Position numbers and translations under genes: made by a program. DNA of 64,000 nt from Minisyncoccota bacterium (GTDB lineage: Bacteria > Patescibacteriota > Minisyncoccia > Phycocordibacterales > PALSA-1337): the NCBI GenBank assembly GCA_028713005.1, contig JAQTPC010000001.1, forward strand, positions 33,414 to 97,413. Reading direction: 5' to 3'. Below, one piece after another: positions 17,003-63,960 of the stretch. How positions within the stretch are numbered: the stretch's first letter is position 1; each line of letters begins with the position of its first letter. Under the pieces are notes generated by a model. That model searched no databases and had not been told where the DNA came from. It was given only the letters and a program-made list of their open reading frames with translations.

Positions 17003-18017
17003 ATTTGATGACATCAGTAAGTATATTTCTAAAAATCTCAACGAAAATACTTTGCAAGTAGCTGTGCGCGAAGGTATAAGCTTAGAGTTTAAAGAAAATT
17101 ACGATTGGTCAAATAAAGATGACTATGCGAAAACTATCGCATCATTCGCTAATAATCGCGGTGGTTACCTTATATTTGGAATTACAAACGCACCCAGAAT
17201 ACTGAAAGGTTTATCAAGTAATAATTTCGAGAATCAAGATGATGCTATTATTACTTCCTACTTGAACAGTGTATTTTCTCCTGAAATTAATTACGAAAAA
17301 TATGAAAAAATAGTAGTAGATAAAAGGATTGGGGTTATCTATGTTCATCAGTCACAGCAAAAACCAATTGTTGCAATTAAAAATGATAAAGGAATCAAGG
17401 AAGCAGAAATCTACTACAGATACAAAGCGAGAAGTGAGAAAATTAAATTTCCTGAGCTTAAAAGTATTTTCGATAATATACGCGAAAAAGAGAGAGATAA
17501 TTGGATGAATTTATTTGAAAAAATATCAAAAATTGGTCCAGAAAATGTGGGGGTTATGGATACGGTTAGAGGCACCTTAGAGGGAAAAGGCGGGTCACTT
17601 CTTATTGATAGTAAACTCGTTCCTAAGCTTAAATTTATTAAGGATGGTCATTTCAGTGAAAATGGAAAGATTGCCCTTAAGTTGATTGGTGACATCAAAC
17701 CTGTTTCTGTTGCAAGTTACGGTAAAATAGGGAGCGCATCCATAAGAATTACGGATGATCCAACAGCTTTTGCAATTAGTGAAGAAACTATTCTTAAACA
17801 GTACCCCTTAGATTATTTTGATTTGATTAAAGCGTTACGAACTAGATTTCCTAGCCTCAAAATTAACCCTGAATTCCATAAAATCAAGGATATATTAATT
17901 AAAAATCCAAAGTACTGCATAACACGCTATCTCGATCCAAATAAAAAGAAAGGTAGTCAAAAGTCATTTTATAGTAATTCAATTATTAAAGAGTTTGATA
18001 AACATTATAAAAAATGA
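16995..18017 (+). CDS. AlbA_2 (Schlafen-like 'divergent AAA' DNA-binding) domain protein
   Basis: N-terminal …ISLEFKENYDW…AKTIASFANNRGGYLIFGITNAPRILKG… matches the E.LEFK…AFAN..GG.i.fGv signature; the C-terminal 200 aa are unassigned. The start overlaps the uvrB stop by 8 nt, and the gene is much more AT-rich than uvrB. Confidence 0.6.
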   Translation: MNKFDDISKYISKNLNENTLQVAVREGISLEFKENYDWSNKDDYAKTIASFANNRGGYLIFGITNAPRILKGLSSNNFENQDDAIITSYLNSVFSPEINYEKYEKIVVDKRIGVIYVHQSQQKPIVAIKNDKGIKEAEIYYRYKARSEKIKFPELKSIFDNIREKERDNWMNLFEKISKIGPENVGVMDTVRGTLEGKGGSLLIDSKLVPKLKFIKDGHFSENGKIALKLIGDIKPVSVASYGKIGSASIRITDDPTAFAISEETILKQYPLDYFDLIKALRTRFPSLKINPEFHKIKDILIKNPKYCITRYLDPNKKKGSQKSFYSNSIIKEFDKHYKK

Positions 18018-18640
18018 ATCGAAAATACTACAGAAGTAAACGACAAAGCCCACTTGATACATTTCTTGACGAACTCTTTGATTTCATAGTTTTTATTTTT
18101 GTTACACTTTTTAGATACTGTTGGAAATTAATCAAAAATACTCGTACGACAAGACCAAATCTAAAATTGAACATAGAAATACCCTCTGTGCCAAATGTAA
18201 ATAATAGTTTAGCTGATGACAGTAAAGTAACTACTTCAGAATCTCGTTATATCTTAAAAGAAAGTTTGGTGACAAATGCTGAAAAGGAATTCTTGAAAGT
18301 TTTAGAGACTGTAGTTGGCAATAGTTATCGTATCGAATCACAGGTTCCACTATCTGGAATAGTTAAACCAATCGATTCAAGTGATCATTGGACTAACTAT
18401 CGTGATTTTAATCCGATTAAGTCAAAGTCGATTGATTTCGTCTTATATGACAAGGATTACAAACCATATTTGGCTATTGAACTGGATGATCGTTCACATT
18501 CAAGATGGGATAGAATTAAGAGAGACCAGATCGTAAACGAGATAATGAAGAGTGTGGGATTGCGCATCGTTCATATACCATTTTCCTATCGCTATAATCC
18601 TGAGAAATTAAAGAGTGAGATATTTATCGAGAATGCTTAG
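18014..18640 (+). CDS. membrane-anchored Vsr/DUF559/DUF2726-like (restriction-endonuclease-fold) protein
   Basis: N-terminal TM helix. The C-terminal …IDFVLYDKDYKPYLAIELDDRSHSRWDRIKRDQIVNEIMKSVGLRIVHIPF… matches the …DF.l….aIE.DG..H…..rD..r…L…G..v.R signature. A 4-nt ATGA overlap joins it to the previous gene. Confidence 0.5.
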   Translation: MNRKYYRSKRQSPLDTFLDELFDFIVFIFVTLFRYCWKLIKNTRTTRPNLKLNIEIPSVPNVNNSLADDSKVTTSESRYILKESLVTNAEKEFLKVLETVVGNSYRIESQVPLSGIVKPIDSSDHWTNYRDFNPIKSKSIDFVLYDKDYKPYLAIELDDRSHSRWDRIKRDQIVNEIMKSVGLRIVHIPFSYRYNPEKLKSEIFIENA

Positions 18641-40462: not shown

Positions 40463-43400
40463 TTAAAATGAACTTGGAAAATCAATTACTGGCACAACTA
40501 TTGGCTTTGGTGTAGTTGTAGTCTTTACTGGAGGCGTTACTGTTTTTGTTGGCGCAACTACTTTTACTGGACTCGAAACTGGTTGAACTGTTGGCGCTGC
40601 AACTCCAGTCAAAGCTGCTCGTGTACGAGGCCCAGTTGCTCCGTAACCATTTGTTGCGGGGCTGCCAGAACACACGCTTATTGTTGCACATTGGAATCTT
40701 TTGACAGCAGCATCAGTCGCTGGGCCGAAATAGGTAGTTTCAAAACCACTTGAACCATTTCCATAACTTGCAACTGTGTACCCTTTTGCATTCAAAAGTT
40801 TTTGAAGAGTTTTGACTTGCTGACCTGTAACACCAAGCGAAAGGTATGATGTCAGTGCTGTGCCACTAATCATATTTGTGACAGCTGGTATTGGTACCAT
40901 AGGAGTTATAGCACTAGTAACTATAGGAACGAGGAGTGGTGTGAGTGCTCCGTTCAAAACATCACGTGTGCGAGGTCCTGTTGCTCCATAGCCATTGGTT
41001 GTAGCACTACCATAACAAATTGAAAGAACTGCGCACTGGAATTTTTTGAGTGCAACCTCAGTTGCGGGACCAAAATACGTCGTTTCGTTTCCTGGTGTAC
41101 CAAGTCCTGAAGTTGCTATGTAATATTTATTTGCATTAAGGAATTCTTGAAGCGCTTTGACATCGAGACCAAGAGATCCGGCAGAGAGAGTTCGTGTGAA
41201 CTGAAACTTTCCAGCATTGACGAATGGTTTTATCGCAAGAGTTGCTGTAGCAACTTTTGGCGGTGTGATATACAGTAAACCACCACCTCCTCCGCCACCG
41301 CCCGAAGAACCGCCAGGTGAACCTCCCCCACTACTTGGAATACTGATTGTAACTGACCCTGATGAGCTAGCGGATATATTGCCTGCAGCGTCCTTTGCCC
41401 AAGCATATAGAGTCTTTGTGCCTTCAGTGCCAAAAACGTATGCAGTAGGTGCCGTACCAACCCAGCCGGTATCATTCACCGATGGTAAACTTATTGATTC
41501 ATTTAACAAATAGCTTGTCACAGCCACGTTATCTGTTGCTACAAATGTAGTGATCGGAACTGTCAGTGAACTTGCAGTAGTCGGAATAGAAAATCCAGTG
41601 ATAACTGGTGCGGTAGTATCAGGTATAACAACCTGTAGTGTAGTTGTTGAAAGTATAGTGCCTGTAGTCGTACCCAGTGCACTCACTGCATATGCTCGAA
41701 AATAGTAAACGGTATTTGGGGTCAGGCTAATAAGATTTTGTGTGAAATCGCCTGTGCCACTGAAAGCACCAAGTGACGTGGTAGCAATCACCGTTGAAAG
41801 GTTTGCAGATGTACCATACGCAAATCCATGTTGAGTTGCATTATTTCCACCCGTACTGCTAACGTTCGCATTTAAAGTCAACGTTGAAGTAGATACCGAG
41901 CTTGGAGCTGATGTGGTGAGAGCATAAGGATATATGATAGCCGTCTGAGCCCTGAATGCGACCGACCCCATCGCCCAGTATGGGCTAGAATTTCCACTCA
42001 TCTCAACAGAATACGTACCGGGTGCATTTATAATTTGATATTCAGTAGCACTCATTTGAACAGGCTCTTCGTTCAATACAGTAAAACCTAATCCCGGAGA
42101 TACAGGTGAACCACCGCCAGACTCATCAGAAAGACCCACAAAGATAAGACCTGCTGGGTCAGTCAGTGTCAGATCACCAGTAGACCACAACGCACCTGCA
42201 TTCGCACCAGTTGACGAAGCTACAAATGGATCTGTGGTATCTAATCCTGACCATTCAGAGATATGGAAACCAAGGTCATCATACCCACCCGTAAGACTCA
42301 CCGTAACAGTATCAGGTCCACCTATAATATTTTTTGCGTAATATAGATACACTTTTGAGTTATTTCCAGAATCTTTTTCCGATACTTTCACAAAGGTATT
42401 GCTACTCGAATCTTGAATCGTAACATCACCCGCTCCGGCATTTATATAGCTACTTACTGCAACCACAATCAAGTTGCCAGCTGTCGTGTTACTCGTAAAT
42501 GAAAGGCCAGTTGGACCTTTTCCTGTCGGATATACTGAGCGATTCTGCACAAGCGCAGGTGTACCGAGGAGTACCTGCGTCGGTGTTGTAGTAGAAAGAA
42601 TCGCACCAGTTGATGTACCCGCAGAGTTTACTGCGTAGGCACGAAAATAATAGGTGGTATTTTGCGTAAGACCAGTGATATTTTGAGAAAAATTGCCAGT
42701 GCCACTAAAAGCACCGAGTGATGTAGTGGCAATCACCGTTGAGAGATTTGCTGATGTACCGTAAGTAAATCCGCGTTGAGTTGCATCTTCTCCCCCAGTT
42801 GCACTGATATTTGCATTAAGTGTGAGGGCTGACGGCGTTACTGAACTTGGTGCTGAGGTAGTAAGAGTTGGAATAAAAACTGACTGTGCTGAAGTGGTGA
42901 ATGTTTGATCAGTTGTCGTAGCTGTACCCGCAGAATTAGTTGCGAATGCCCGGTAGTGATAGAGAGTTGACGGAGTAAGACCGCTGATTGATTTTGAAAA
43001 TGTTCCAGCGCCAAATGAACCCGTCGTTGATGCTGTAGAGCCATATGAAGTCGTTAAACCGTAATTAAAACCTACGTCAGTCGAAGCATCACCACCGTCA
43101 GCAGTAATTGTTGCATTCAAAGTAACGCTAGACGAAGTCAGTGAGGTCGGCGAAGATGTGGCGAGCGTTGGCACAGTTGCCGAACCAGTCGTTCTGAAAG
43201 TTAAATCAGTAGTTGTTGAGGTTGACGAAGCAGTATCAACAGAAACAATCTGAAAATGATAGGTCTGTGCCGAACTGAGACCAGTGATAGAAACACTGTG
43301 TGTAAGTGTCTTAGCTGATGTATATGTTGAAGAAGATGTATAAGATGCTGTGGCTCCATAATTAACCAATGTATCGGCTGACCTATCAGTGTTCCAGGTG

Positions 43401-46024
43401 ATAGTAGCACTTGTTGCACCAGTAGACGATGCGATTGATGAAATAATAGTTGGCGCATATCCCTCAGCAATATTTGCTACATTTGTGGCGAGTAAAGCGT
43501 GACCAGCACGGTTTGGATGGATATATTCTATCTCATAGGTTGTTGGTCCAAACTGATTGACTGCACCGAAAATATTTCCAATATTAAAATAATATACTTT
43601 GCTATCAGACGGATAAGCAGCTTGATATGCAGCTAGACCTGCCTGAATCTCGGTAGTAAATTCAGAATTAACGTTTAAGTCATTAAGGGACAGAAAAGAT
43701 GGCATCAAAAATATTTTTGTATTTGGTCCGAGTTGAGTACGAGATAGCGTAAGAAGCTCTTTCACCGATGTCGTAATATCTGTCTGATAATCATTTGCAC
43801 CTTGAGCGATGACAAAATAGTCGAGATCAGATGGAAGTGGTTGAGCGTGCTGAGAGTCAACATAATCGAACGTGGCAGTCACATATGGTCCTGCTCCTAT
43901 CGTTCTATATCCTTGTCCACTATAGGCTTTGATACCCACTTCAGCATCGAGCTTTTGTCCGAATAACATACCCCAACTATCTTGAACATATGTCTGCCCA
44001 GTTGTCGTATGATCGACACCACTTGCGTCTGCCTCAGCCGAGTATCCACGTGTGATAGAGTCTCCCAGTATCATCATGCGTTTTGGTCTCAAACCATCTG
44101 CATACGTAGGGGTTGAAATTGATTTTCCTGCTTCAATCTCCCATCCGGTAATCTTTACCAATGAATTTGCTGGCCAACTATCTTCAACGCCACCCTGTTC
44201 ATAATAAACTTGGGCCGAATGACTTCCGCTTGATAAACCGGTAGCAAGAGTCATCACTTGTGTACTGACACCTGATTCTGGTTGAAGTTGTGCTCGCTGC
44301 CACGCACCACCGTCAATTTTCCAGTTGATGAATGGATAATTTGAAAATGCAGCACCAGAACGAATCAGTGTACTGAGGTCCGCATCAAGCTTGAGTGTAC
44401 TACCTGTAAAAACAAATTTTGCTGAACTACCAGTATGCATCATCTGTACACCAGAACCACTATCATACGTATTGCCTGGAGAATAGATCACACGGCTGTC
44501 ATTCGCTGCGACTACATCTGTAGCTAATACAACGTTCAGTGTTGTTGATGTCGCATTGCTTGGGTCACTAATTGTCAACGTACCTGTAGATGGACCAGTA
44601 GCTATAGTGATGGACGCATGTGTTGCATCTGTAACGGTTTGTGATGATATGGAGGCACCACTCACACCAGAAACAGTAAACGTAGGACTACCTGGAGTAC
44701 CAGAAGTCCAACCTGTTGCATTACCGGTAAGCTGTACGACAGTCGAAGCTGATGTAGGAATCCTTGTTTTATTTGCTACTGATCCACCTGAACAAGGTAG
44801 TGTTGTGAAATACGTACTTGATGCAGTACCGCTACCGTTAGCATTGGTAGCGTAAGCTCGATAAAAATATGTCGAATTACACGTAAGTCCGCCGATGCTC
44901 TGGCTATATGCACCTGCAGTAAATGTGCCCGCAGTAGATGCGTCTAAACCATATGACGTGCTTGTACCGTAACTAAAACCCTTAACGGTGGTTGAATATT
45001 GAAAAGCGAAATCATTTGAAATAACCCCATTGAGCGTTGCGCCTGTCGCAGTGATACTAGTAACACTTTGATTTACTATTGCAGGAACAGGTACATACGC
45101 TAAACCGGAACTATAGTACCCCTTTGATCCATCTGGTGCATACCATAGTCTCCACTGTCCTCCTCCGCCACCCTGATACCAACTTCTACCTGCATCATCT
45201 GAGTAATATAGCGCTACATTTCCTAAAGCAAAAATATGAATACCATCATTCGACATTGCGAGATCATCCCAATTATTCATGCCTGCAAATTTTAACGCTG
45301 TCCAGTTCGCACCGTAATCAATTGATTTGTATATATAACTATCTCTCGTACCCACATACATAACACCACTATCACCTACTACAACCGAACTTCCCTTAGC
45401 AGTTACACTTGAAACCGTATTCCATGTTGCACCAGAATCCGAAGAAACATGGATACTTCCATCATTGCCAAAATCATTAATGGAAACCATTGTCGCTCCA
45501 TCAGGTGATATAGCAACAGATCCACCACCAGTACCGTTGAGCACAGTAGTCCACGTAGCACCAGAACTTGTAGAGACAAGTGTAGATCCCCCTGTTTGTA
45601 AAATGAGATTTGCTCCACTAGCTGATGAAGCGATCCTTTGCCAAGAGATACCTGCACCAAGTACAGTTGAACTTGCCCAAGTTGTTCCTCCGTCAGTCGA
45701 ATAATAGACATAATCAATACATTGAGACGAACAGGTCGTTGCCCATACTTTTTGCCCATCTGCTGATGCTGCTATGGCATGCGAGTACACATTCCAAGCT
45801 CTTGAACCACCACCAGTAAGTGACGTCCAGGTTTTTCCTGTATCAATTGATTTTTCGAGATAGCCAGAGTTACCGAAACTAAGCGTATTTCGATACATCA
45901 CCAACTCACTCGTTGCTGAAGTCAAACTGCTCGCCGAGACAAAAGTATTGTTAGCATGAGCGAACTGCGTACCAATAGCTGTAACAGCAAAAGTAAAAAT
46001 GAGATATGGGTAGAGCCTCTTCAT
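40463..46024 (-). CDS. giant secreted protein, family A
   Basis: 1853 aa. Order: signal peptide; BNR/Asp-box (S-x-D-x-G-x-T-W) beta-propeller; Fn3-like domains; SGNH/GDSL hydrolase (…MMILGDSITRGY…GANDYQTD…IHPNRAGH); more Fn3 domains; Gly-rich linker; two PG_binding_1 repeats (…FQCAVLS…); Pro/Thr/Lys tail ending …KPIVVPVIDFPSSF. Confidence 0.75.
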   Translation of the reverse strand: MKRLYPYLIFTFAVTAIGTQFAHANNTFVSASSLTSATSELVMYRNTLSFGNSGYLEKSIDTGKTWTSLTGGGSRAWNVYSHAIAASADGQKVWATTCSSQCIDYVYYSTDGGTTWASSTVLGAGISWQRIASSASGANLILQTGGSTLVSTSSGATWTTVLNGTGGGSVAISPDGATMVSINDFGNDGSIHVSSDSGATWNTVSSVTAKGSSVVVGDSGVMYVGTRDSYIYKSIDYGANWTALKFAGMNNWDDLAMSNDGIHIFALGNVALYYSDDAGRSWYQGGGGGQWRLWYAPDGSKGYYSSGLAYVPVPAIVNQSVTSITATGATLNGVISNDFAFQYSTTVKGFSYGTSTSYGLDASTAGTFTAGAYSQSIGGLTCNSTYFYRAYATNANGSGTASSTYFTTLPCSGGSVANKTRIPTSASTVVQLTGNATGWTSGTPGSPTFTVSGVSGASISSQTVTDATHASITIATGPSTGTLTISDPSNATSTTLNVVLATDVVAANDSRVIYSPGNTYDSGSGVQMMHTGSSAKFVFTGSTLKLDADLSTLIRSGAAFSNYPFINWKIDGGAWQRAQLQPESGVSTQVMTLATGLSSGSHSAQVYYEQGGVEDSWPANSLVKITGWEIEAGKSISTPTYADGLRPKRMMILGDSITRGYSAEADASGVDHTTTGQTYVQDSWGMLFGQKLDAEVGIKAYSGQGYRTIGAGPYVTATFDYVDSQHAQPLPSDLDYFVIAQGANDYQTDITTSVKELLTLSRTQLGPNTKIFLMPSFLSLNDLNVNSEFTTEIQAGLAAYQAAYPSDSKVYYFNIGNIFGAVNQFGPTTYEIEYIHPNRAGHALLATNVANIAEGYAPTIISSIASSTGATSATITWNTDRSADTLVNYGATASYTSSSTYTSAKTLTHSVSITGLSSAQTYHFQIVSVDTASSTSTTTDLTFRTTGSATVPTLATSSPTSLTSSSVTLNATITADGGDASTDVGFNYGLTTSYGSTASTTGSFGAGTFSKSISGLTPSTLYHYRAFATNSAGTATTTDQTFTTSAQSVFIPTLTTSAPSSVTPSALTLNANISATGGEDATQRGFTYGTSANLSTVIATTSLGAFSGTGNFSQNITGLTQNTTYYFRAYAVNSAGTSTGAILSTTTPTQVLLGTPALVQNRSVYPTGKGPTGLSFTSNTTAGNLIVVAVSSYINAGAGDVTIQDSSSNTFVKVSEKDSGNNSKVYLYYAKNIIGGPDTVTVSLTGGYDDLGFHISEWSGLDTTDPFVASSTGANAGALWSTGDLTLTDPAGLIFVGLSDESGGGSPVSPGLGFTVLNEEPVQMSATEYQIINAPGTYSVEMSGNSSPYWAMGSVAFRAQTAIIYPYALTTSAPSSVSTSTLTLNANVSSTGGNNATQHGFAYGTSANLSTVIATTSLGAFSGTGDFTQNLISLTPNTVYYFRAYAVSALGTTTGTILSTTTLQVVIPDTTAPVITGFSIPTTASSLTVPITTFVATDNVAVTSYLLNESISLPSVNDTGWVGTAPTAYVFGTEGTKTLYAWAKDAAGNISASSSGSVTISIPSSGGGSPGGSSGGGGGGGGLLYITPPKVATATLAIKPFVNAGKFQFTRTLSAGSLGLDVKALQEFLNANKYYIATSGLGTPGNETTYFGPATEVALKKFQCAVLSICYGSATTNGYGATGPRTRDVLNGALTPLLVPIVTSAITPMVPIPAVTNMISGTALTSYLSLGVTGQQVKTLQKLLNAKGYTVASYGNGSSGFETTYFGPATDAAVKRFQCATISVCSGSPATNGYGATGPRTRAALTGVAAPTVQPVSSPVKVVAPTKTVTPPVKTTTTPKPIVVPVIDFPSSF

Positions 46025-46081: not shown

Positions 46082-49000
46082 TTAGAAATTGAAATTGATA
46101 CTTGGTACAACCACTGGCTTTACAGTTGTTGTTTTAACAGGCACCGTTGCTGTAGTCGGAGTTTTTGTTGGAGTAGGTACACTAGCTGGAGTAACGGTAT
46201 TTGTCTGAGTGACTGGCGCAGTCGTACCACCCAATGCTGCACGAGTACGAGGACCTGTCGCACCATAACCAGTTGTCAGCGGTGAACCTGAACATACAGA
46301 AAGTACTGCACACTGGAATTTCTGAAGCGCTACCTGTGTAGATGGACCAAAATATGTAGACTCATTTCCAACTGACCCATTACCTGATGTGGCTATAGTG
46401 TATCCTTTAGCATTCAAAATCTTTTGTAGTGTTTTAACTTGTTGACCAGTTGTGCCCAAGAACAGATATGAAGTAAGTGCACTACCCGAAGAAGTGGTTG
46501 TTACGGACCCTGTCGCACTAACATTAGAACGACTCGCACGATATTGAGCTACAGCATTTGCTGTTAACTGACCGTAGTAGCCAGTAGCATAAACTGAAGA
46601 CAGGTAGCCACCTGCTATGAGATATTTTTGCAATGTGAGTACAGCAGTTGAGCGAGAACCGAATTCAAGGTTGAGGTATGCAGTCGGGATAGAACCAGTT
46701 GTTGGCGGAACAATTGTTGTTGTTACTGGTGCTGAAATATTTTGTATAACAGTATTCGCACTGCCTGCGTCGAATTTTGCAAAAACAGACATTGAGGATG
46801 ACAAGGTAACGGTACAAGTTGATGTGGCAAACGATGCGCAACCGCTCCATGATGTTAGATGTGAATATTTGTCTGGAATAGCAGTCAAAGTAATCTTTGA
46901 ACCGGCATAGAATGCCGAAGTACACTTTGAGCTACAGAGTATACCTGAAGGGTTTGAAGTTGTAGTACCATGACCTGTTCCGGTAGTTTGGATAGTAAGA
47001 CTATAGTATGTTCCCCCGCCCCCTCCGCCACCACCGCTATAGACGACAGGGTTACCTCCGCTCGTACTACAAGCAGATGTGGTAAATGTTCCATCACTTG
47101 TAACTCCAGTTCCTGAGAAATTTATTGCATATGCTTGGTAATGGTAAGTAGTGCCACACGTGAGGCCGGTGAGTGTTTTTGAGAATGCCCCTGTATTGAA
47201 ATGTCCCGAAGTAGATGATGTTGCAGAATAATCCACCGTTGCACCGTACCTGAAACCAAGTTCAGTCACACTGCTACCACCTGTAGTGTCCACATTTGCA
47301 TTAAGATCAGCACCTGTCTGAGTTATTGTCCCAATCGTTGATACTGAAACAGTAGGAGGAACAACACTTACACAGTCAGTTGTATTAAATGTTTGATCTG
47401 AGCTTGATGCAGTCCGTTGTACATAACTACCAGTTGCACCATCAAAATTGCGAGCATAGAACATATAATGATATGTAGTGCCACATGACAAATCATTGAT
47501 AGTTGCCGTCACCGCTGCATCAGTATTATTTAAACTTGCATCAAGAGTTCCTGAGAAATCAGTTGAACTTGCATATGCTGTGTCAGTGCCATATTTGAAA
47601 CCACGCTGATTGATGAAACTTCCTCCTGTATAGAGAACTGAAGCGTTAAATGTTACATCTGACGCTGTTATACCTGTGGCTGTAGGTGTTGATATTGTTG
47701 GGGCAACGACTGGCACACTCGAAGAAGCGTATATCATTTTAATATACTGTTTTTCCGCTGTATTAAACCAAGAATTAAACAATGTGACGCTACCGTGTCT
47801 GACCGCATTTACCAGCTCCCAGTAATGATCCACGAGTTCAGGAGTGACTTCGTTGTTTGAGTTGACTGCAACCGCAGCCTCGGGGTAAATATCACCGATA
47901 TTACCTATCGTTCCAGGCCCACCATAAAATCCCTGAAGTCGTGTGTACTTGAATGGTATACCAACGGTATACTCAAGAAGTGTCGTGTTCTCAGGCATGA
48001 GCAATACATCGGGGATATCCTGGTGAACCTGAATCATGTCAGTTCCCGCAATCCAATCGGTACTATCGATATAGAATATGGTAACACCCCATCGACTCTT
48101 GGCATAGTTAATCTTATCCTTGAGTAACTGAATGCGAGCCGCAGTATCAGTCACATACTGCTGACTTGGGCGCACGCCGTAAATGCCATATAGTCCACCC
48201 CCACCACAACCAAGATTTGCATCACCGGGATCATATACGATTTGATCTGGACGTATTGTAATACCTGCTCTGAGTCCATTATCAAGTATCTTATGGAAAG
48301 CTGCATCAATAACATTCATTGAGGTACTCGAATAATTTGCACTTGGATTCGTAGTACTCGAATACACGTAGTTAACTTGCGTATCCCATTCAGGTGCAAA
48401 ACGAGGATCTTCAGCGTAGCGAGGATCACCTATGTATGATGTACAATGCGGCCAACGTTGTCCTTCGAGATCCCACAAGATGACACCTTGACCATTAACT
48501 TCTTTTACATTTGCAATATCCGCATCAATGCGTGCCAGCATCTGTGTCGCCCAGGCTTGTCTACCTTCTGGTGTAGTCACGTCGACACTTCCCGGATCAA
48601 TGCCATTCGAGAACCAACCATTCATATTTTTTGAAAAATCAGATGCGCAACCATTTACAATTGGACAAGGTGGTGAAGACAAGAAATCAGTACCTATAGG
48701 TCGGCGATCTGACCAAAAATTTTGCATCGGATACTGTGCTGTCCATGCTGAAATCACTTCGGGTACAGCCTCAAGTAGACTGGTACCGAGTGGGTAAAAC
48801 TTGATTGCATTTGTAGCAGTAACAGTCGTACCATGTGGCACACTTCCTATGGAAGTCGAGAGTAGGCACCATGGTGTTGGGCTGCCACAGTCACCTGTGA
48901 CTTTATTCGTATTTACTAAAAAGAGTTCACCAAAAGTAGTATTAAAACCCCAAATGTTAGGGTAATCTCCCGCTTGGCTTGTCGGCAATGAATCACCTGT

Positions 49001-49501
49001 ATAACCTGTTATATTTAAGCCGCCCATATGGAATGACAGGTAACCAATATCAGTCGCAGTATTATTGGTAACTGAAACGTGTATATCAATACTTGGACCA
49101 TTTTGCACAAACTGCAGTGATGCGTTTCCTTGGCTATAGTTGAATGTAAGTGTGTTGGTCTGAGAATCAAATACAGTTCCTTGATCTGAACCAAGAGACA
49201 TGCTGCCGCCACTAGTATTTTGTATTTCTCGAATATTGATACATGTATTTTGTCCCGGGTCTTTAAAATCACCTCCATTATATGTGAGACTTGTAAACAT
49301 ATATCCACAACTTACTGGACCAATAGTAAATGATGGACTATTTAGTGCATACGTACTCTGAATATTCGCAAGAAGACTTGTGGTGAACGTGATTGCTATA
49401 AGAATGAATGTAACCCAGTGTGTTACCTCAGACAATGGATGCTCATGCCAAAGTCGATAGAGTGGAAATTTTCTTGATAAGTGTGAGTGTAAAAAGTCCA
49501 T
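46082..49501 (-). CDS. giant secreted protein, family B
   Basis: 1139 aa. Order: conserved N-terminal LYRLWHEHPLSEVTHW followed by a TM helix; beta-sandwich region; about 450-aa conserved TIM-barrel-like central domain (…VILWDLEGQRWPHCTSYIGDPRYAEDPRFAPEWDT…WGVTIFYIDSTDWIAGTD…); Fn3-like domains; Gly8 linker; divergent InlB-B repeat; two PG-binding repeats; tail …KPVVVPSINFNF. Confidence 0.7.
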   Translation of the reverse strand: MDFLHSHLSRKFPLYRLWHEHPLSEVTHWVTFILIAITFTTSLLANIQSTYALNSPSFTIGPVSCGYMFTSLTYNGGDFKDPGQNTCINIREIQNTSGGSMSLGSDQGTVFDSQTNTLTFNYSQGNASLQFVQNGPSIDIHVSVTNNTATDIGYLSFHMGGLNITGYTGDSLPTSQAGDYPNIWGFNTTFGELFLVNTNKVTGDCGSPTPWCLLSTSIGSVPHGTTVTATNAIKFYPLGTSLLEAVPEVISAWTAQYPMQNFWSDRRPIGTDFLSSPPCPIVNGCASDFSKNMNGWFSNGIDPGSVDVTTPEGRQAWATQMLARIDADIANVKEVNGQGVILWDLEGQRWPHCTSYIGDPRYAEDPRFAPEWDTQVNYVYSSTTNPSANYSSTSMNVIDAAFHKILDNGLRAGITIRPDQIVYDPGDANLGCGGGGLYGIYGVRPSQQYVTDTAARIQLLKDKINYAKSRWGVTIFYIDSTDWIAGTDMIQVHQDIPDVLLMPENTTLLEYTVGIPFKYTRLQGFYGGPGTIGNIGDIYPEAAVAVNSNNEVTPELVDHYWELVNAVRHGSVTLFNSWFNTAEKQYIKMIYASSSVPVVAPTISTPTATGITASDVTFNASVLYTGGSFINQRGFKYGTDTAYASSTDFSGTLDASLNNTDAAVTATINDLSCGTTYHYMFYARNFDGATGSYVQRTASSSDQTFNTTDCVSVVPPTVSVSTIGTITQTGADLNANVDTTGGSSVTELGFRYGATVDYSATSSTSGHFNTGAFSKTLTGLTCGTTYHYQAYAINFSGTGVTSDGTFTTSACSTSGGNPVVYSGGGGGGGGTYYSLTIQTTGTGHGTTTSNPSGILCSSKCTSAFYAGSKITLTAIPDKYSHLTSWSGCASFATSTCTVTLSSSMSVFAKFDAGSANTVIQNISAPVTTTIVPPTTGSIPTAYLNLEFGSRSTAVLTLQKYLIAGGYLSSVYATGYYGQLTANAVAQYRASRSNVSATGSVTTTSSGSALTSYLFLGTTGQQVKTLQKILNAKGYTIATSGNGSVGNESTYFGPSTQVALQKFQCAVLSVCSGSPLTTGYGATGPRTRAALGGTTAPVTQTNTVTPASVPTPTKTPTTATVPVKTTTVKPVVVPSINFNF

Positions 49502-49514
49502 ATGAGTATATTAC

Positions 49515-50390
49515 TTATCGTGTCGTCACGGTCACCATACGTGAATTTGAGGCAGTTACTACGCATGATTTTCCTGACATACTTTCACATCCTTTCCAAA
49601 TTAAAATACTTTGTGCATCATCCTGAGTGGCAGTCAATATAACTTTGGTGCCGAACGTAAACTTATGCGAACAAATTGCTCCACAAGAAATACCGGTTGG
49701 ATTTGAATTGATTTCAATATTTTCTTTGGTAAACACAAAAATTGGGTACGTAACATATTCCGTTTCCTTACTTCCAGATGGAACCACTAAACCGTCGTTA
49801 AGTGAAATAATTTTAGGTAAAACTTTTGGTACCACATCATCAATCTTAGCAATTATTTTATCTTCTGTCTTTGTAGTTGAAGCAACGTCAGGATTAATGG
49901 CTACATTTTCAGTAGTAACTGAACTTGATGATGCTGTATGTTCAGAAGTGATACCGCCGATGATTGGTGATGGCACTGGAGTTTCCGTGCTTGATGTATT
50001 TGTATCAGTAGTAGTTGCGACACTATCTGTACTCGTAGCAGCTGGTACAACAACAGAAACTGCTGTGTCTGTTGTATTTGTTTGAGTCGAGCTCGCTTGA
50101 TCTATTGTTTCAGCAGGGACAGCTACAGTACTCGTACTTTCAGTATTTATTAGTGGACTATTATCAGTAGTTTGCTCCGTCACTATTGTGTTGTCCTCTG
50201 TAGTAGAAGCATTTCCATCAACTGTTTGTGCATAGCTATTTACTGCAAATAATAGATTTGCCGTAAGTACACAACTGATTGCCATAAATGAAACCCAGTG
50301 GGTGGTTCCGGCAAGTGGATGCTTATGCCAACTATAATATGCTGGAACAGTGCGAGATAGGAAGTCGTGGAGACTTTTCATAAGCAACAT
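49515..50390 (-). CDS. family-B-related short protein
   Basis: 291 aa. Carries the same N-terminal …YYSWHKHPLAGTTHW… segment and TM, a Thr/Ser-rich linker, and a C-terminal divergent InlB-B repeat (…ISCGAICSHKFTFGTKVILTATQDDAQSILIWKGCESMSGKSCVVTASNSRMVTVT…). Confidence 0.55.
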   Translation of the reverse strand: MLLMKSLHDFLSRTVPAYYSWHKHPLAGTTHWVSFMAISCVLTANLLFAVNSYAQTVDGNASTTEDNTIVTEQTTDNSPLINTESTSTVAVPAETIDQASSTQTNTTDTAVSVVVPAATSTDSVATTTDTNTSSTETPVPSPIIGGITSEHTASSSSVTTENVAINPDVASTTKTEDKIIAKIDDVVPKVLPKIISLNDGLVVPSGSKETEYVTYPIFVFTKENIEINSNPTGISCGAICSHKFTFGTKVILTATQDDAQSILIWKGCESMSGKSCVVTASNSRMVTVTTR

Positions 50391-50421: not shown

Positions 50422-53391
50422 TTACTTTTTACCTCCTCCACGAATATTGAACTTAATTGAAGCGGTTTTTGCAGCAGAGATATTGCCTGCAGCATCTTTT
50501 GCCCATGCGTAAAGTGTTCGTGATCCTGTGGTCATTTTGAATGTATACGATGTAAGTGGTGCAGTTTTCCATGAAGCACTCGTCACTGATGGAATAGTTG
50601 ATGATTCACTTACAAGATAACCTGTAACTCCAACATTATCAGTTGCACTATATGCAGTGATTGGTACAGTTGCTGTTATTGATGTTGAAGGAATAGTAAA
50701 TACTGTAACGACTGGTGAAGTAGTATCCCCTCCCGTTGTAGTATTTTGAGTGAACGATGCAGTGACAGTGATATCTCTAGATACATTGTTATCTGTGCGA
50801 GGATTTGCAGTTATTCCGTCTGACCAGCTTACGAAATGGAATCCACTATTTGCAACCGCAGTTACCGAAGAACCATTTGCCCCTGCTGTGACACTTTGTG
50901 GTGATGTGCCTGTAATAGAGCCGTCAGGTCCAGCAGTGTAAGTGAGAATATATGTAGTTGGTGCAACAACAATATTTATGACAACAGTTGCACTCTTGCT
51001 TGCAGATATATTTCCTGCAGCATCCATGACCCATGCATACAATGTCTTTGATCCCGAACTACCAAATGTATATGATGTTGGAACTGAACCTGACCATGCA
51101 GTATCACCCAAGGAAGGTACCGTTGATGTTTCTTTGATAAGGTATGCGGCAACGCCAACATTATCAACAGCAGTGAATGTAACCGGAACAGTGAGGCTCG
51201 CTGATGTAGAAGGAATAGCGAATGAAGTAATAGACGGACCTGTCGTATCAGAAGAGGGTGGAGGATTCGTTGTACCGCAACCAGTTCCTGTTGTCGTGAA
51301 TGTTTGATCAGCACCATATCCTGTGAGTTCGGTATGCAGACCGGTTCCTCCTGAAAAATTCTTTGCGAAGGCACGATAGTGGTACGTAGTTCCACAGGTA
51401 AGACCCGTAACACTTAGATTGAAATTTGCATCTATATTGTTTAGGTTCACATCAAACGCTCCGTCTGCCTTAACAGAAGAGCCGTATGAGGTCGTTGGAC
51501 CATATTCAAATCCACGAGTAATCACATATGTACCGCCTGTTGCACTAACTATACCGTTCAACGTTGCATTTGTATCACCTACAGCACTTGCTCCCGTTGA
51601 TACTGTGGGTGCTACGACCGGAAGCGCAGCTGCTGCATATACCATCTTTATATATGGCTTTTCAGATCCGTTATACCACGAGTTAAACAAACTTAAACTA
51701 CCATTTCTAATTGCATCTACAAGCTCCCAGTAATGGTTAACAAATTCATTCTGTTCATTATTTGCATTAAGTGCTGCTCCTGCACGTGGATATATATCAC
51801 CGATATTACCTATCTTTCCTGGTCCACCATAGAACCCTTGTTTATTTGTATATTTGAATGGCAAACCAACTGAATACTCGAGCAAAGTTGTATTTTCAGG
51901 AATGAGAAGTACATCTGGGATGTCTTTGTGCAACTTAATCATATCAGTACCAGCAATCCAATCAGTACTGTCAATATAGAAGATGGTGACACCCCAACGA
52001 TTCTTTGCAAAATTGATCTTATCCTCAAGCAACTTTATACGAGCATTCGTATCGGTAAGATATTTTTGACTTGGACGAATGCCAAATATGCCATATGTTC
52101 CTCCTCCACCACAACCGAGATCAGCGTTATTTGGATCATACGTTATCTCATCTGGACGAATGGTAATACCGGACTTGAGTCCATTATCTCGAATCTTGTG
52201 AAAGACAACATCGATAACATTCATTGAAGAACTTGAGAAACCACTACCAGGATCGGAGTAAGCTATCTTTGTATCCCACTCAGGCGCAAAACGAGGGTCT
52301 TCTGCATAGCGAGGGTCGCCAATATATGACGTACAGTGTGGCCAGCGTTGACCTTCGAGATCCCACAAGATGACACCTTGACCATTAACTTCTTTAACAT
52401 TTGCTATGTCTGCATCAATACGAGCGAGCATCTGTGTAGCCCACGCTTGTCTACCAGCAGAAGTTGTCACATCAACATTTCCTGGATCAGAACCATTTGA
52501 GAACCAGCCGTTCATATTTTTTGAAAAATCAACAGAACAACCGTAAATAGGACATGGTGGTGAAGAAAGGAAGTCAGTTCCGATAGGTCGACGATCTGAC
52601 CAAAAATTTTGCATCGGATACTGTGCTTTCCATGCAGCTATGACTTCAGGAACAGCTTCGAGTAGACTAGTTCCGAGTGGATAAAACTTAATAGCATTTG
52701 TAGCAGTAACAGTTGTGCCGTGAGGTATGTTACTGATCGAAGTTGACATCAAGCACCATGGCGATGGATTACCACAATCACCGGTGACTTTATTTGTATT
52801 AACAAAGAAAATTTCACCGTAGGTTGTGTTTACACCCCAAATATTAGGATAATCTCCTCCCTGACTCATTGGCAACGAATCTCCCGTATAACCAGTTATA
52901 TTGAGACCTCCTACATGGAAAGCGAGATAACCAATATCAGCAGACGTATTGTTTGTAACTGAAAGGCGCATATCTACACTTGGACCATTTTGGATGAACT
53001 GTATTGACGCACTACCTTGACTAAACTTCAAGGTCACCGTATTGCTTTGAGGGTCAAATAAAGTACCCTGATCTGCACCGAGAGATATTCTGTTTCCATT
53101 TGTATCTTGTATTTCTCGTATATTGATACACTGGTTTTGTGCCGGATCAGCAAAACTTGCTCCGTTGTACGATAGAGCAGTAAGCGCATAACCACAACCA
53201 ACCTGACTAACAGTAAATGATGATGGCGTGTATCCTGCAAACGATTTTTGAATGTTAGCAAGAAGACCCGTGGTGACAGAGAGAGATATGAGTATAAAAG
53301 CAAACCAATGTGTTGCCTCAGACAATGAATGCTCGTGCCACAAGCGATATAGAGGAACTTCCTTACATAGCTTGGCGTGAATTTTTCTCAT
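50422..53391 (-). CDS. giant secreted protein, family B paralogue
   Basis: 989 aa. N-terminal LYRLWHEHSLSEATHW plus TM. Its central domain is about 85-90% identical in nucleotide sequence over long stretches to 46082-49501. Fn3/Ig-like repeats follow. Confidence 0.7.
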   Translation of the reverse strand: MRKIHAKLCKEVPLYRLWHEHSLSEATHWFAFILISLSVTTGLLANIQKSFAGYTPSSFTVSQVGCGYALTALSYNGASFADPAQNQCINIREIQDTNGNRISLGADQGTLFDPQSNTVTLKFSQGSASIQFIQNGPSVDMRLSVTNNTSADIGYLAFHVGGLNITGYTGDSLPMSQGGDYPNIWGVNTTYGEIFFVNTNKVTGDCGNPSPWCLMSTSISNIPHGTTVTATNAIKFYPLGTSLLEAVPEVIAAWKAQYPMQNFWSDRRPIGTDFLSSPPCPIYGCSVDFSKNMNGWFSNGSDPGNVDVTTSAGRQAWATQMLARIDADIANVKEVNGQGVILWDLEGQRWPHCTSYIGDPRYAEDPRFAPEWDTKIAYSDPGSGFSSSSMNVIDVVFHKIRDNGLKSGITIRPDEITYDPNNADLGCGGGGTYGIFGIRPSQKYLTDTNARIKLLEDKINFAKNRWGVTIFYIDSTDWIAGTDMIKLHKDIPDVLLIPENTTLLEYSVGLPFKYTNKQGFYGGPGKIGNIGDIYPRAGAALNANNEQNEFVNHYWELVDAIRNGSLSLFNSWYNGSEKPYIKMVYAAAALPVVAPTVSTGASAVGDTNATLNGIVSATGGTYVITRGFEYGPTTSYGSSVKADGAFDVNLNNIDANFNLSVTGLTCGTTYHYRAFAKNFSGGTGLHTELTGYGADQTFTTTGTGCGTTNPPPSSDTTGPSITSFAIPSTSASLTVPVTFTAVDNVGVAAYLIKETSTVPSLGDTAWSGSVPTSYTFGSSGSKTLYAWVMDAAGNISASKSATVVINIVVAPTTYILTYTAGPDGSITGTSPQSVTAGANGSSVTAVANSGFHFVSWSDGITANPRTDNNVSRDITVTASFTQNTTTGGDTTSPVVTVFTIPSTSITATVPITAYSATDNVGVTGYLVSESSTIPSVTSASWKTAPLTSYTFKMTTGSRTLYAWAKDAAGNISAAKTASIKFNIRGGGKK

Positions 53392-60741: not shown

Positions 60742-63700
60742 TTACTTTGGCTGGGTTCTAAACGTAGAGACTGCTGATGTTGACTGTGTTCCACTGACCG
60801 AATCAACTGCCGTAATCTTGAAATAATATTTCGTACTCTTTGTGAGACCAGAGATAGTCAGCACATGTAAAGTAGATAGATTGGTATCATTTGCAACTGA
60901 GCCAGTTGCTTTGTTGGTGAGACCATATGAGATATTGCCTGTAGATGGTACATTTGTATTCCATTTGATCGTCGCTGTTGTAGCGGTCTTCTGAGAAACT
61001 GAGAACGAAGTTATCGCCACCGGTGTTGGACCAGTAACAATAGGTTGAGGAACCGTAACAGAAACGGTATTACTCTGCGCAGAGAGATTTCCCGCAGCAT
61101 CAGAAGCGACGACGGTGTAGCTATACGTACCTGGAACAACACTATTATCTGTATATGATGTTGACGGAGCAGTAGCGATTGTTTGACCATTACGGAGGAT
61201 GGCATAACCTGTTATACCGACATTATCTACCGAAGCAAACCACGTAAGTTTAACTGAGCTTGAGTTAGGTGCAATTGCAGTGAGATTTGTCGGTGGTGTA
61301 GGTGCTGTAGTATCCGGAACAACTACTACAACATCTTTTTCAAATTGAGCTGTAACACTAACATTGCTTGAAACCGACACATCAGTTCTTGGGTTAGCCG
61401 TAGAGCCATCAGACCAATTTAGGAAATGGTACCCCGTATTAGCTACAGCGGTGACAGAACTCCCATTGGCACCGGAGTTAATAGTTTGCGTAAGTGACCC
61501 AGTAATATTACCGTTTGCACCTGCTGTATACGTAAGCGTATATGTGGTTGTTGTAGGTGGTTCAACAGGAGGCGTCACACCAGAAACATATTGACTAGCA
61601 ATTTCAACTATCTTTGAAGCCAATAATGCGTGGCCAGGCTTATTTGGATGAATTGCGTCATTTGTATATGTCATTGGGCCATAGGGGTTTGCTGCACCGA
61701 ATATATTTCCGATACTAAAGAAATAGACACGACTATCTGATGGATTAGTGGCTTTGTACGCAGCGAGACCAGCCTGTATTTGTGAAGTTACTTCTGGGTT
61801 ACCATTTATATTATTGAGAGTAAGGAATGAAGGCATCAGGAAGATATAGGTATTCGGACCAACCTGAGCACGAGCCATCCTCAACAGCTCTTTTACAGAA
61901 GTGGTGACATCCGTCTGATAATCATTTGCACCCTCAGCAATGATGAGATAATCGACGCCATATGGTAATGGTTGCGCATGGATATAGTCGAGATGATCAA
62001 ATGTTGCAGTAACTGATGGGCCGGAGCCATATTTTCTGTACCCTGCACCACTGTATGCCTTGATACCCACCTCAGCATCGAGCGCTTGTCCGACAAGCAT
62101 AGCCCAACTATCTTGTACAAATGTACTGCCTGTACCTGTATGATCTACTCCGCTCGAATCAGCTTCTGCATTATATCCACGTGAAATAGAGTCACCCAAA
62201 ACAATCATGCGCTTTGAACGTAAACCTGTTGCAGCAGTCGGAGCTGATATTGTCTTTCCAACATCCACCTCCCAGCCCGTGACATTGACCGCGGAACGTG
62301 CGTACCATGTATCTTCAAATCCGCCTTGCTCGTAGTACACCTGAACCGAGTGGTCACTATCTGCCAAACCACTCGCTAAAACTACCGTCTGTGTGCTTTT
62401 ACCTGTATCAGGACGGAACTGGGCGCGTTGCCATGCGCCATTATCGATCTTCCAGTTGACATACGGGTACTTTGAGAAAGCTACACTATCTTCTAACCAC
62501 AAACTAAGATCCACATCCATCTTGAGGAAGCTACCAGTAAAACCAAATTTTGCTGAAGTGCCTGTTTGGTTTACCTGCACATATGTACCTCCATTATAGA
62601 CATTACCTGGTGTGTAAAATATACGTGTGTCATTTGGTGCAATCAAAGTTGAAGGTTCAGCAGATGGAGTTCCTGGTGATCCGGCGCACAGCGAGGTTGT
62701 GAAATATCCACCCTTTCCATATCCAGTGCCATTTGCATTTGTCGCATAGGGACGGAAGAAATACGTAGTACCACACGTAAGGCCACTAATATTTTGAGAG
62801 TATGATCCAGCGGTGAATGTGCCGTTCATGACAACTCTTGACCCATATGCATTTGTTGTACCGTATTCAAAACCGCGAACAGATGTCGAATACTGGAATG
62901 CAAAATCATTAGCAACTGACGCATTGAGCGTTGCTCCTGTCGAAGTGATGTTTGTAGCACCCATACTTGTGACTAGTGGTATTGGCACATAGGCTGAGCC
63001 GCCACTAAAATACGCTTTTGAACCATCTGCGGCGACCCACAATCGCCACATACCACCGCCTGGACCTTGGGTCCAATTTGCTCCAGCAGAATCAGAATAA
63101 AAGAGTGCCACGTTTCCTAATGCGAGAATATGTACACCGTCATCTGAAATCGCAAGGTTTTGCCAATGATTCATGCCAGCAGAGGTGAGCGCTGTCCATG
63201 TTGCCCCATAATTTGTAGATTTATAAATATAAGTATCACTTATACCAACATACATGACACCATTGGCACCGACAGCGACTGAGGCTGCTTTGCCAGGAAT
63301 GCTCGTAACTTTACTCCATGTTGTGCCTGCATTTGTAGATATGTTGATACTCCCATCACTGTCTGGATTATTCAAAGAAACCATTGTTGCCCCATCAGGT
63401 GAAATAGCGACTGTACCACGACCCACTCCATCAAGTGTAGTTTTCCATGTAGCACCCGCATCAGTTGAAACCATGGTCGCCCCCATACTTTGCAAAATAA
63501 GAGTATTCCCACTTGCAGATGAAGCTATTTTCCACCACGATAAACTTGGTCCCAGCACAGTAGAGCTTGCCCATGTCGTACCTCCATCAGTTGAAAAATA
63601 CACATAATCAACGCACTGCGAAGCACATGTTGTTGCCCAGACTTTCTGACCGTCAGCAGAAGCTGCAATTGCTCCCTGAAACACATTCCATGCCTTTGAG

Positions 63701-63960
63701 CCGGAGCCCGTCAAGCTTATCCATGTTTTTCCAGTATCAATAGATTTTTCGAGATAGCCAGATGTGCCGAAATTAAGGGTATTACGGTACATGACTAGTT
63801 CACGTGATGAAGGAGCAAGATTAGCAGCATTGACCCACACATTGTTACCTGAACCTACACCAGCATTTGCTTGCTGACTTGTCATCATAGTTGCCAAACC
63901 GAGTGCCATAGCTATCACAAAACTTGAGAGAATAAAGAGGTGGGATTTTTTAATTTTCAT
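60742..63960 (-). CDS. giant secreted protein, family A paralogue
   Basis: 1072 aa. Order: signal peptide; BNR/Asp-box propeller about 75% identical to the N-terminus of 40463-46024; SGNH hydrolase (…MIVLGDSISRGY…GANDYQTD…IHPNKPGH); C-terminal Fn3-like domains. Confidence 0.75.
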   Translation of the reverse strand: MKIKKSHLFILSSFVIAMALGLATMMTSQQANAGVGSGNNVWVNAANLAPSSRELVMYRNTLNFGTSGYLEKSIDTGKTWISLTGSGSKAWNVFQGAIAASADGQKVWATTCASQCVDYVYFSTDGGTTWASSTVLGPSLSWWKIASSASGNTLILQSMGATMVSTDAGATWKTTLDGVGRGTVAISPDGATMVSLNNPDSDGSINISTNAGTTWSKVTSIPGKAASVAVGANGVMYVGISDTYIYKSTNYGATWTALTSAGMNHWQNLAISDDGVHILALGNVALFYSDSAGANWTQGPGGGMWRLWVAADGSKAYFSGGSAYVPIPLVTSMGATNITSTGATLNASVANDFAFQYSTSVRGFEYGTTNAYGSRVVMNGTFTAGSYSQNISGLTCGTTYFFRPYATNANGTGYGKGGYFTTSLCAGSPGTPSAEPSTLIAPNDTRIFYTPGNVYNGGTYVQVNQTGTSAKFGFTGSFLKMDVDLSLWLEDSVAFSKYPYVNWKIDNGAWQRAQFRPDTGKSTQTVVLASGLADSDHSVQVYYEQGGFEDTWYARSAVNVTGWEVDVGKTISAPTAATGLRSKRMIVLGDSISRGYNAEADSSGVDHTGTGSTFVQDSWAMLVGQALDAEVGIKAYSGAGYRKYGSGPSVTATFDHLDYIHAQPLPYGVDYLIIAEGANDYQTDVTTSVKELLRMARAQVGPNTYIFLMPSFLTLNNINGNPEVTSQIQAGLAAYKATNPSDSRVYFFSIGNIFGAANPYGPMTYTNDAIHPNKPGHALLASKIVEIASQYVSGVTPPVEPPTTTTYTLTYTAGANGNITGSLTQTINSGANGSSVTAVANTGYHFLNWSDGSTANPRTDVSVSSNVSVTAQFEKDVVVVVPDTTAPTPPTNLTAIAPNSSSVKLTWFASVDNVGITGYAILRNGQTIATAPSTSYTDNSVVPGTYSYTVVASDAAGNLSAQSNTVSVTVPQPIVTGPTPVAITSFSVSQKTATTATIKWNTNVPSTGNISYGLTNKATGSVANDTNLSTLHVLTISGLTKSTKYYFKITAVDSVSGTQSTSAVSTFRTQPK

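Follow-up and report, generated by a model that had tools for sequence, protein, structure and literature searches.

A Position-Fixed, His/Trp-Rich N-Terminal Module of Patescibacteria: a Putative Sorting, Docking, or Anchoring Signal of Extracytoplasmic Proteins

The 64,000-nucleotide stretch of DNA analyzed here (the window; positions 33,414 to 97,413 of the forward strand of contig JAQTPC010000001.1 in the Minisyncoccota bacterium assembly GCA_028713005.1) carries, downstream of dnaK-dnaJ, three consecutive minus-strand genes, at 50422-53391 (989 amino acids [aa]), 49515-50390 (291 aa), and 46082-49501 (1139 aa), whose open reading frames (ORFs) all begin with the pattern M..(L/I)H..L....P.Y..WH.H.L....HW..F followed by a single transmembrane (TM) helix. 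Judging from sequence comparisons, this motif is a widespread, position-fixed N-terminal module that occurs almost exclusively in the Candidate Phyla Radiation (CPR)/Patescibacteria, where a large number of otherwise unrelated extracytoplasmic proteins carry it. Based on the family alignment and a structural model, the module is most likely (with a probability of roughly 0.6) a lineage-specific extended Sec-type signal or signal-anchor, in which the His/Trp-rich cap and a conserved face of the TM helix add recognition, docking, or anchoring.

The motif defines a family of N-terminal modules

A profile of 4 sequences and 52 positions (A4) was used for an exhaustive hmmsearch of 1.84 billion representative proteins at E values of ≤1e-3, the kind of hidden Markov model (HMM) scan that had been proposed in the initial annotation of this DNA. 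It matched 100 proteins, including 3 low-complexity false positives; the 97 true matches, which range in length from 52 to 2021 aa, all align at the extreme N terminus (approximately residues 1 to 50). The family thus extends far beyond the window, and the concern voiced in the same annotation, that the motif could be confined to three recent paralogs, can be put aside in view of the 97 N-terminal matches in 1.84e9 proteins. The family consensus is M1..[LI]4 H5..L8..K11..[WL]14 Y15..W18 H19.[HN]21 P22.[HS]24...H28 W29..F32, followed by a hydrophobic run that includes T40 and extends to I47. In the sequence logo, Tyr15 and Trp18 are conserved in 100% of the sequences, His19 in 97%, His5 in 94%, Trp29 in 90%, Phe32 and Leu8 in 89% each, and His28 in 88%. 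Trp18 is found exactly at residue 18 in 65 of the 97 sequences, and in most of the others the start codon seems to have been called wrongly, since the conserved Met is located internally.

Outside the module, full-length identity among the members is 14 to 29%, and their names in public databases are “hypothetical protein,” “thermitase,” and “S8 family serine peptidase.” Among the orthologs of the small protein, the N-terminal module is 75 to 77% identical, compared to 27 to 37% for the body of the protein; in an ordinary signal peptide, the reverse is usual, the mature part being the one that evolves more slowly. Pfam has no model over the motif in either the window proteins or 48 full-length members. 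A search of NCBIfam release 20, which holds curated models of sorting signals, with 72 N termini at E values of ≤1 returned only scattered chance matches, and a sequence search of the PDB with the motif gave only chance TM matches (E > 0.27). Foldseek found no meaningful match for a 55-residue AlphaFold2 (AF2) model, and a full-text literature search found no description of the motif. A word-indexed protein search with 56-aa and 72-sequence alignments produced no match and is uninformative, as these queries are too short for its 5-mer index.

Phyletic distribution

At the DNA level, a back-translated pattern comprising M1, H5, Y15, W18-H19, H28-W29, and F32, with a calculated chance expectation of ∼0.14 matches (596 Gb, both strands), was detected at 30 loci in 185,579 GTDB species genomes and at 65 loci in metagenomes, many of them from groundwater series, with no match in viral contigs. 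All the pattern matches are starts of real ORFs; they comprise 118 motif ORFs with 87 distinct N termini from 65 populations, with up to five motif genes per contig. The named CPR lineages account for 28 of the 30 genome loci (Yanofsky-, Nomura-, Kuenen-, and Doudnabacteria, Paceibacterota, Parcubacteria, “Patescibacteria group,” and TPA bins with the “Saccharibacteria” label), and the other two come from an unclassified “bacterium” and from a 62%-GC contig labeled Gammaproteobacteria. The latter encodes a clear motif protein (L030:6852-8000, plus strand; E = 8.5e-16); either this high-GC contig comes from the CPR and was binned wrongly, or the module occasionally occurs outside the CPR.

Two individual loci show how motif genes can vary. 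In a five-gene motif cluster, one paralog (L020:3158-4666, minus strand) keeps the first 10 residues (MRILHQHLLN), which are directly followed by the TM segment, the W/H core having been lost. A Kuenenbacteria motif gene (L024:4822-4959, minus strand) is interrupted in frame by a TAG codon just behind the TM helix, at a position where its paralog has CAG, and the beta-helix body goes on in the same frame past this codon. The TAG state is common to 12 contigs of that population (11 of these being metagenome loci, e.g., L032, L034, and L036), and the gene has either become a pseudogene or is translated by stop-codon read-through.

Anatomy of the module

The AF2 model built on the 72-sequence alignment (mean predicted local distance difference test [pLDDT] score of 92.8) consists of helices at residues 2 to 11 and 13 to 20, a turn at H21-P22-x, and a long helix at residues 24 to 54. 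On average, residues 1 to 28 of the family members contain 4.1 Lys and Arg, 1.6 Asp and Glu (a net charge of +2.5), and 4.8 His residues, and the segment from residues 49 to 68 is slightly acidic, with a net charge of −0.8. Because the part preceding the TM helix is basic, the positive-inside rule predicts that the cap is cytoplasmic and that the passenger lies outside. Hydropathy is high at residues 30 to 47, and the uncharged run that starts from W29 has a median of 21.5 residues, a TM-like length. The module therefore shares the generic hallmarks of a Sec signal or anchor, a basic n-region and a single hydrophobic segment near the N terminus with an extracytoplasmic passenger.

The first two helices of the cap are moderately amphipathic, with hydrophobic moments (muH) of 0.44 and 0.49 versus 0.31 to 0.32 for shuffled sequences, and the conserved residues, at an i/i+3-4 spacing, map to one face of each predicted helix. 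In the context of the model, such spacing would fit a cap that packs into a small unit or, equally, a belt of aromatic and His residues at the membrane interface. Conservation in the TM segment follows a 100-degree periodicity (permutation p = 0.003; p = 0.014 without W29 and F32), with W29-F32-[AS]36-T40-L43-I47 making up the conserved face, a pattern that would be expected of a specific helix-helix contact.

Immediately after the helix, at residues 48 to 62, the tripeptide [AVS]-x-A is seen in 67 of the 125 distinct members, compared to 29 and 21 of the 125 in control windows located further in (∼2.5-fold enrichment), although its position is not fixed. In the window proteins, residues 50 to 52 are T-Y-A, S-F-A, and S-Y-A, i.e., [ST]-[YF]-A. 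Given this enrichment and the [ST]-[YF]-A tripeptides, approximately half of the members, including the three window proteins, are probably cleaved by signal peptidase I (SPase I) and released, and the other members probably stay anchored.

Passenger domains and tiny motif proteins

Among the 48 full-length members, Pfam detected Big_7 in 16, Peptidase_S8 in 13 (with I9 or fervidolysin prodomains), and Pur_ac_phosph_N/fn3 in 12/11, as well as Laminin_G_3, BACON, beta-helix, dockerin, M11/M12 peptidase, PG_binding_1, and T4SS_pilin domains; by their family assignments, all these passenger domains are of extracytoplasmic types. A second TM segment is missing from 98 of 105 members, none of the 105 has a sortase-type C-terminal signal, and a hydrophobic C-terminal segment is found in two of them, both VirB2-like pilins. 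Motif proteins P0176 and P0216 are VirB2/TrbC-type pilins (PF18895) of the type IV secretion system (T4SS), with the module standing where such pilins usually have a long leader. Among the neighboring genes, there is a weak recurrence of T4SS_pilin domains (3 of 145), which is a lead only. T4SS pilin clusters have been described in Patescibacteria (PMC12857230), and the pilin members and neighbors may link the motif to these clusters.

Several members consist of the motif and the TM helix only. These include the 53-aa proteins encoded in L019 (3225-3386, minus strand) and L058 (778-939, minus strand), as well as P0158 and P0171. Two other tiny proteins, of 82 to 83 aa, carry a short conserved N-terminal extension (L017:120-371 and L074:840-1088, both on the minus strand). 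Wherever the neighborhood was examined (L017, L019, and L074), the tiny protein is encoded directly downstream of a gene for an AI-2E-family transporter. The motif-plus-TM proteins indicate that the module can reside in the membrane as an independent entity.

The window proteins

Within the window, the motif is found only in the three ORFs named above (regular expression search of all six frames of the 64 kb), and the N termini quoted in the initial annotation agree exactly with the ORF translations, the interval 49340-49501 on the minus strand representing codons 1 to 54 of ORF 46082-49501. Residues identical in all three proteins are M1, H5, L8, P13, Y15, W18, H19, H21, L23, T27, H28, W29, and F32, along with several TM positions. 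Of the two Trp and two His residues that had been described as invariant, both Trp residues (W18 and W29) stand, but the His count has to be raised to four (H5, H19, H21, and H28). The absence of the motif from the proteins that had been designated family A is borne out by the products of 40463-46024 and 60742-63960, which begin with ordinary signal peptides.

In the 1139-aa protein (protein 1), the module spans residues 1 to 52 (MDFLHSHLSRKFPLYRLWHEHPLSEVTHWVTFILIAITFTTSLLANIQSTYA; 49346-49501, minus strand) and is matched by the A4 profile at E=3.8e-22, with residues 1 to 54 aligned. Its His/Trp/Tyr-rich cap, predicted to be cytoplasmic, occupies residues 1 to 28 (49418-49501, minus strand), with the H-P turn at residues 21 to 23 coming after the two predicted helices, as delineated from the AF2 model, the charge and His content of the family, and the logo. 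The single TM helix with its conserved face corresponds to residues 29 to 47 (49361-49417, minus strand), according to hydropathy and the periodicity of conservation, and the T-Y-A tripeptide at residues 50 to 52, encoded on the same strand, is a possible SPase I site in light of the site enrichment. The module of the 989-aa protein (protein 3), MRKIHAKLCKEVPLYRLWHEHSLSEATHWFAFILISLSVTTGLLANIQKSFA, is encoded at 53236-53391 on the minus strand; this protein is identical to database entry P0001 (NCBI PHG25_00445, a hypothetical protein from a “Candidatus Pacebacteria” metagenome-assembled genome). Proteins 1 and 3 share 70% identity over ∼700 aa. Their N termini and their bodies are each 60% identical, so this pair, whose N termini are conserved no better than the bodies, is uninformative with respect to the motif. 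Together with the third gene of the syntenic soil contig L001 described below, which starts with a plain TM segment and has no motif, the 70% identity of the first ∼700 residues of protein 1 to protein 3 suggests a recent duplication or gene conversion that would have transplanted the motif as well.

As judged from its alignment with the other two, the informative case among the three is the 291-aa protein (protein 2), which shares with them only the N terminus and a C-terminal InlB-B-repeat-like stretch. The start called for its ORF (49515-50390) by program reads MLLMKSLH, and the ATG at 50381 is the fourth codon. The true start is probably this ATG, which would make the ORF three codons too long, because the motif then falls into the fixed register of the family counted from Met1 and because the database copy, P0122, is 288 aa long. 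From this probable start, the module, identified by the profile match and the identity among orthologs, is MKSLHDFLSRTVPAYYSWHKHPLAGTTHWVSFMAISCVLTANLLFAVNSYAQ (50226-50381, minus strand).

All three proteins (minus strand) combine the module with domains that differ in part. Protein 1 (46082-49501) continues with a GH-D-like beta-sandwich/(beta/alpha)8 barrel (residues ∼55 to 600), fn3-like repeats, an InlB B-repeat, and two PG_binding_1 domains; protein 2 (49515-50390; 291/288 aa) has a Thr/Ser-rich linker and an InlB-B-repeat-like C-terminal domain; and protein 3 (50422-53391) has a GH-D-like domain that is 70% identical to that of protein 1, followed by an InlB B-repeat and OmpL47-type Ig-like domains.

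No Pfam family covers the domain at residues ∼55 to 600 that proteins 1 and 3 have in common (minus strand; 47702-49339 in the former and the corresponding portion of 50422-53391 in the latter). The AF2 model of residues 55 to 600 (pLDDT of 88) is a beta-sandwich with a (beta/alpha)8 barrel, whose best matches in the PDB are GH36 alpha-galactosidases, GH129, and MYORG (∼10% identity, TM scores of 0.4 to 0.48). With more than 100 homologs in Verrucomicrobiota, Acidobacteriota, Planctomycetota, and others, and with invariant W-D, D, and E residues, it probably represents an undescribed glycosidase family of the clan GH-D type, and the model points to an exported glycosidase-like enzyme as the predicted product of both genes. 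Homologs of this domain in other phyla begin with plain signal peptides, and there is only one further homolog with the motif, P0003 from soil (47% identical). The respective contig, L001, is syntenic with the window: dnaJ is followed by genes for proteins of 992, 286, and 1136 aa, the first two of which carry the motif.

Elsewhere in the window, adjoining genes at 16935-18640 (plus strand) encode a protein with the Schlafen AlbA_2 domain and a nuclease-like DUF2726 protein, a pair that may constitute a small defense module.

Genomic neighborhoods of the motif genes

The only recurring neighbors of the motif genes encode other large surface proteins (in 14 populations), and the remaining ones are scattered housekeeping genes, such as those for LepA, RF2, MurB, RNase Y, DnaJ, and AI-2E. 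A Pfam search of 145 immediate neighbors detected 129 different families, none of which was present in more than 3 proteins; S26 signal peptidase, sortase, and rhomboid are not among the 25 most frequent of these families, and no signal peptidase, sortase, or rhomboid is encoded by the remaining ORFs of the window. The motif had been proposed to mark the substrates of a specific secretion or maturation pathway, but no dedicated peptidase or secretion gene was found next to the motif genes in the 65 populations. Hence, a dedicated enzyme, if there is one, is not co-located with them.

Possible functions of the module

If the module functions as an extended Sec-type signal or signal-anchor, its hydrophobic helix would insert N-in/C-out through Sec/YidC, the passenger would thereby be exported, and the cap would remain at the cytoplasmic surface of the membrane. 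The cap and the conserved TM face could then be read by a conserved membrane component, such as the translocon, an insertase, a peptidase, or another copy of the module, so that the module, instead of being a generic leader, would serve for sorting, docking, or anchoring. The conserved TM face and the tiny proteins suggest that it works inside the membrane, too, and is not only a disposable tag. In favor of this reading, the homologous globular domain carries plain signal peptides in other phyla, and one paralog in the syntenic contig L001 has a plain TM segment in place of the module, which is thus interchangeable with a signal sequence.

Several observations weigh against this assignment. 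BLAST clustering of the neighbors in the 65 populations revealed no recurrent non-surface gene. The Ala content just after the TM helix, 12% versus 8%, partly explains the enrichment of AxA-type sites. The third gene of the syntenic soil contig (1136 aa; L001:5406-7010, plus strand) has a plain TM segment, and this paralog without the motif, together with the loss in L020, argues that the cap is, by this comparison, dispensable for at least some family members. Finally, the proteins that consist of the motif and the TM helix only have nothing to export, so that a membrane-resident function fits them better than a pure export signal.

A bolder version of the same idea, in which a dedicated patescibacterial sorting machinery, an N-terminal counterpart of the exosortase/rhombosortase type, would recognize its substrates by the cap and the TM face, is tentative and rather unlikely. 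Such a machinery would gather proteases, glycosidases, adhesins, and pilins at one membrane site (for example, the zone where these epibionts touch the host), with the tiny motif-plus-TM proteins serving as regulators or competitors. The main rival, about equally doubtful on balance, is a purely cleavable extended signal peptide, in which the cap would merely tune how the protein is targeted to Sec or when or where it is translocated, in the manner of ESPR and YSIRK, and the 50-residue leader would be cut off by SPase I and degraded with no role in anchoring. The enrichment of [AVS]-x-A right after the helix and the [ST]-[YF]-A tripeptide in all window proteins speak for such cleavage, as do the position of the module in place of the leader in the two PF18895 pilins and the fact that S8 proteases with prodomains are normally secreted. 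However, the site is present in only about half of the members and at no fixed position, the uncharged run is TM-like with one face conserved, the AF2 helix continues unbroken to residue 54, and the motif-plus-TM-only proteins exist.

The richness of the cap in His (4.8 per 28 residues, against a background of ∼2.3%), with H5, H19, and H28 conserved at 88 to 97% and spaced at i/i+3-4 along one face of each predicted helix, would also be compatible with a metal-binding or pH-sensing cytoplasmic cap, where H5, H19, and H24/H28, on the conserved faces of three helices, would make up a Zn/Ni-type site at the surface of the membrane and thereby govern the stability, oligomerization, or regulated proteolysis of the anchored protein. 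This is improbable, given that H28 is replaced by Ser, Thr, or Val in one subfamily, H21 and H24 vary, there are no conserved acidic or Cys ligands, and interfacial membrane anchoring explains the aromatic/His belt equally well. Far less credible still is the view that the motif has no specific function and that the proteins simply have a generic TM anchor at the N terminus, its similarity being due only to shared ancestry, to recent duplication, or to the shuffling of domains between genes for surface proteins. Proteins 1 and 3 are indeed recent paralogs with N termini conserved no better than the bodies, motif genes cluster on contigs (up to five on one), and the motif can be lost. Nevertheless, specific residues are invariant across members with 14 to 29% identity and unrelated bodies, the register from Met1 is fixed, the N terminus in the small-protein family is far better conserved than the body, and AF2 confidence is high; the family-wide conservation seen in the alignments largely refutes this explanation. 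At the bottom of the scale, a prepilin-like leader has hardly any chance of being correct: here, a membrane peptidase acting from the cytoplasmic side would remove the cap at H28-W29, and the hydrophobic helix would become the N terminus of the mature protein. The conserved H28-W29 pair does lie exactly at the cytoplasm/TM boundary, and a conserved motif at this boundary resembles class III (prepilin) signals. Yet the G-1/E+5 signature is present in 0 of 98 members, PF07963 (N_methyl) was found in two neighbor genes only and on none of the motif proteins, and the leader is much longer than that of a prepilin.

Implications for patescibacterial surface proteins

Most members of the CPR/Patescibacteria have not been cultured, and they rely on contact between their surface and the host, a setting in which the motif may bear on the targeting and display of large surface enzymes and adhesins. 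The motif HMM offers a sequence handle on a specific sub-secretome in any CPR genome. The leader marks proteases, glycosidase-like enzymes, adhesin-like repeat proteins, and T4SS-type pilins and points to a previously unrecognized recognition step in their export or anchoring. Generic predictors may mistake such 50-residue leaders for plain TM anchors or miss them altogether, and including the motif could improve the tools for signal peptide prediction and annotation.

Comparison with known signals

The initial annotation saw in the motif a possible new sorting signal like YSIRK or KxYKxGKxW. This is a fair description in kind, as the module is position-fixed, unannotated, and attached to many passengers, but it is a member of neither family. 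Judging by the profile searches, it is an unannotated module that matches no Pfam or NCBIfam family, is akin in kind to ESPR, YSIRK, KxYKxGKxW, and prePAAR, and belongs to none of them. Among the other classes of signals, the Tat twin-arginine motif was found in 0 of 98 members, even with the loose pattern RR.[FLIVM][LIVMA], and the lipobox L-[AS]-[GA]-C was found in 2 of 98, with no conserved Cys after the TM helix. The likeness to the TnaC arrest peptide (MNILH...KWF...HRP) was rejected as superficial; moreover, the confidently predicted helices make it implausible that the beginning of a 1000-aa protein serves for arrest.

The KxYKxGKxW signals of accessory-Sec glycoproteins (TIGR03715) are likewise long N-terminal signals with an aromatic/basic motif before the hydrophobic core. 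However, their pattern is found in 0 of 98 members (regular expression), TIGR03715 is absent from the NCBIfam results for the 72 N termini at E values of ≤1, and the passengers of the CPR module are not serine-rich-repeat glycoproteins. The YSIRK-G/S signal of Gram-positive surface proteins (TIGR01168/PF04650) similarly represents a conserved motif within the signal of a subset of proteins, with ordinary signals present in the same genome, and directs the site of secretion, the septum (PMC5962339, PMC11898559). The [YF]SIRK...G/S pattern was found in 0 of 98 members (regular expression), TIGR01168/PF04650 is absent from the Pfam and NCBIfam matches, and the YSIRK proteins carry a C-terminal LPXTG, whereas the CPR motif proteins have no C-terminal sorting signal.

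A comparable layout is that of the extended signal peptide region (ESPR) of proteobacterial autotransporters and TpsA proteins (PF13018; PMC2805444), an aromatic-rich extension of ∼25 residues at the very N terminus, before the Sec hydrophobic core, which starts with M-N/K-K-I-(Y/H), is carried by very large surface proteins, and is lineage-restricted (PMC2805444). There is no sequence or HMM relationship between the two: PF13018 is not among the families common to the 48 full-length members, which have one hydrophobic segment only and in which no autotransporter domains were found. Further, ESPR is followed by a full second n-h-c signal, whereas here the cap abuts the sole hydrophobic helix; its hosts are diderm Proteobacteria rather than the CPR; and the His-rich signature and the conserved TM face distinguish the patescibacterial module. 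The prePAAR motif with its TM segment in type VI secretion system effectors differs in that AARxxDxxxH is not seen in the logo and no PAAR domain is found among the 25 most frequent passenger families, but it shares with the CPR module the arrangement of a short conserved N-terminal motif right before a TM helix on a large class of unrelated proteins, and the prePAAR motif is read by a dedicated partner (PMC7773334).

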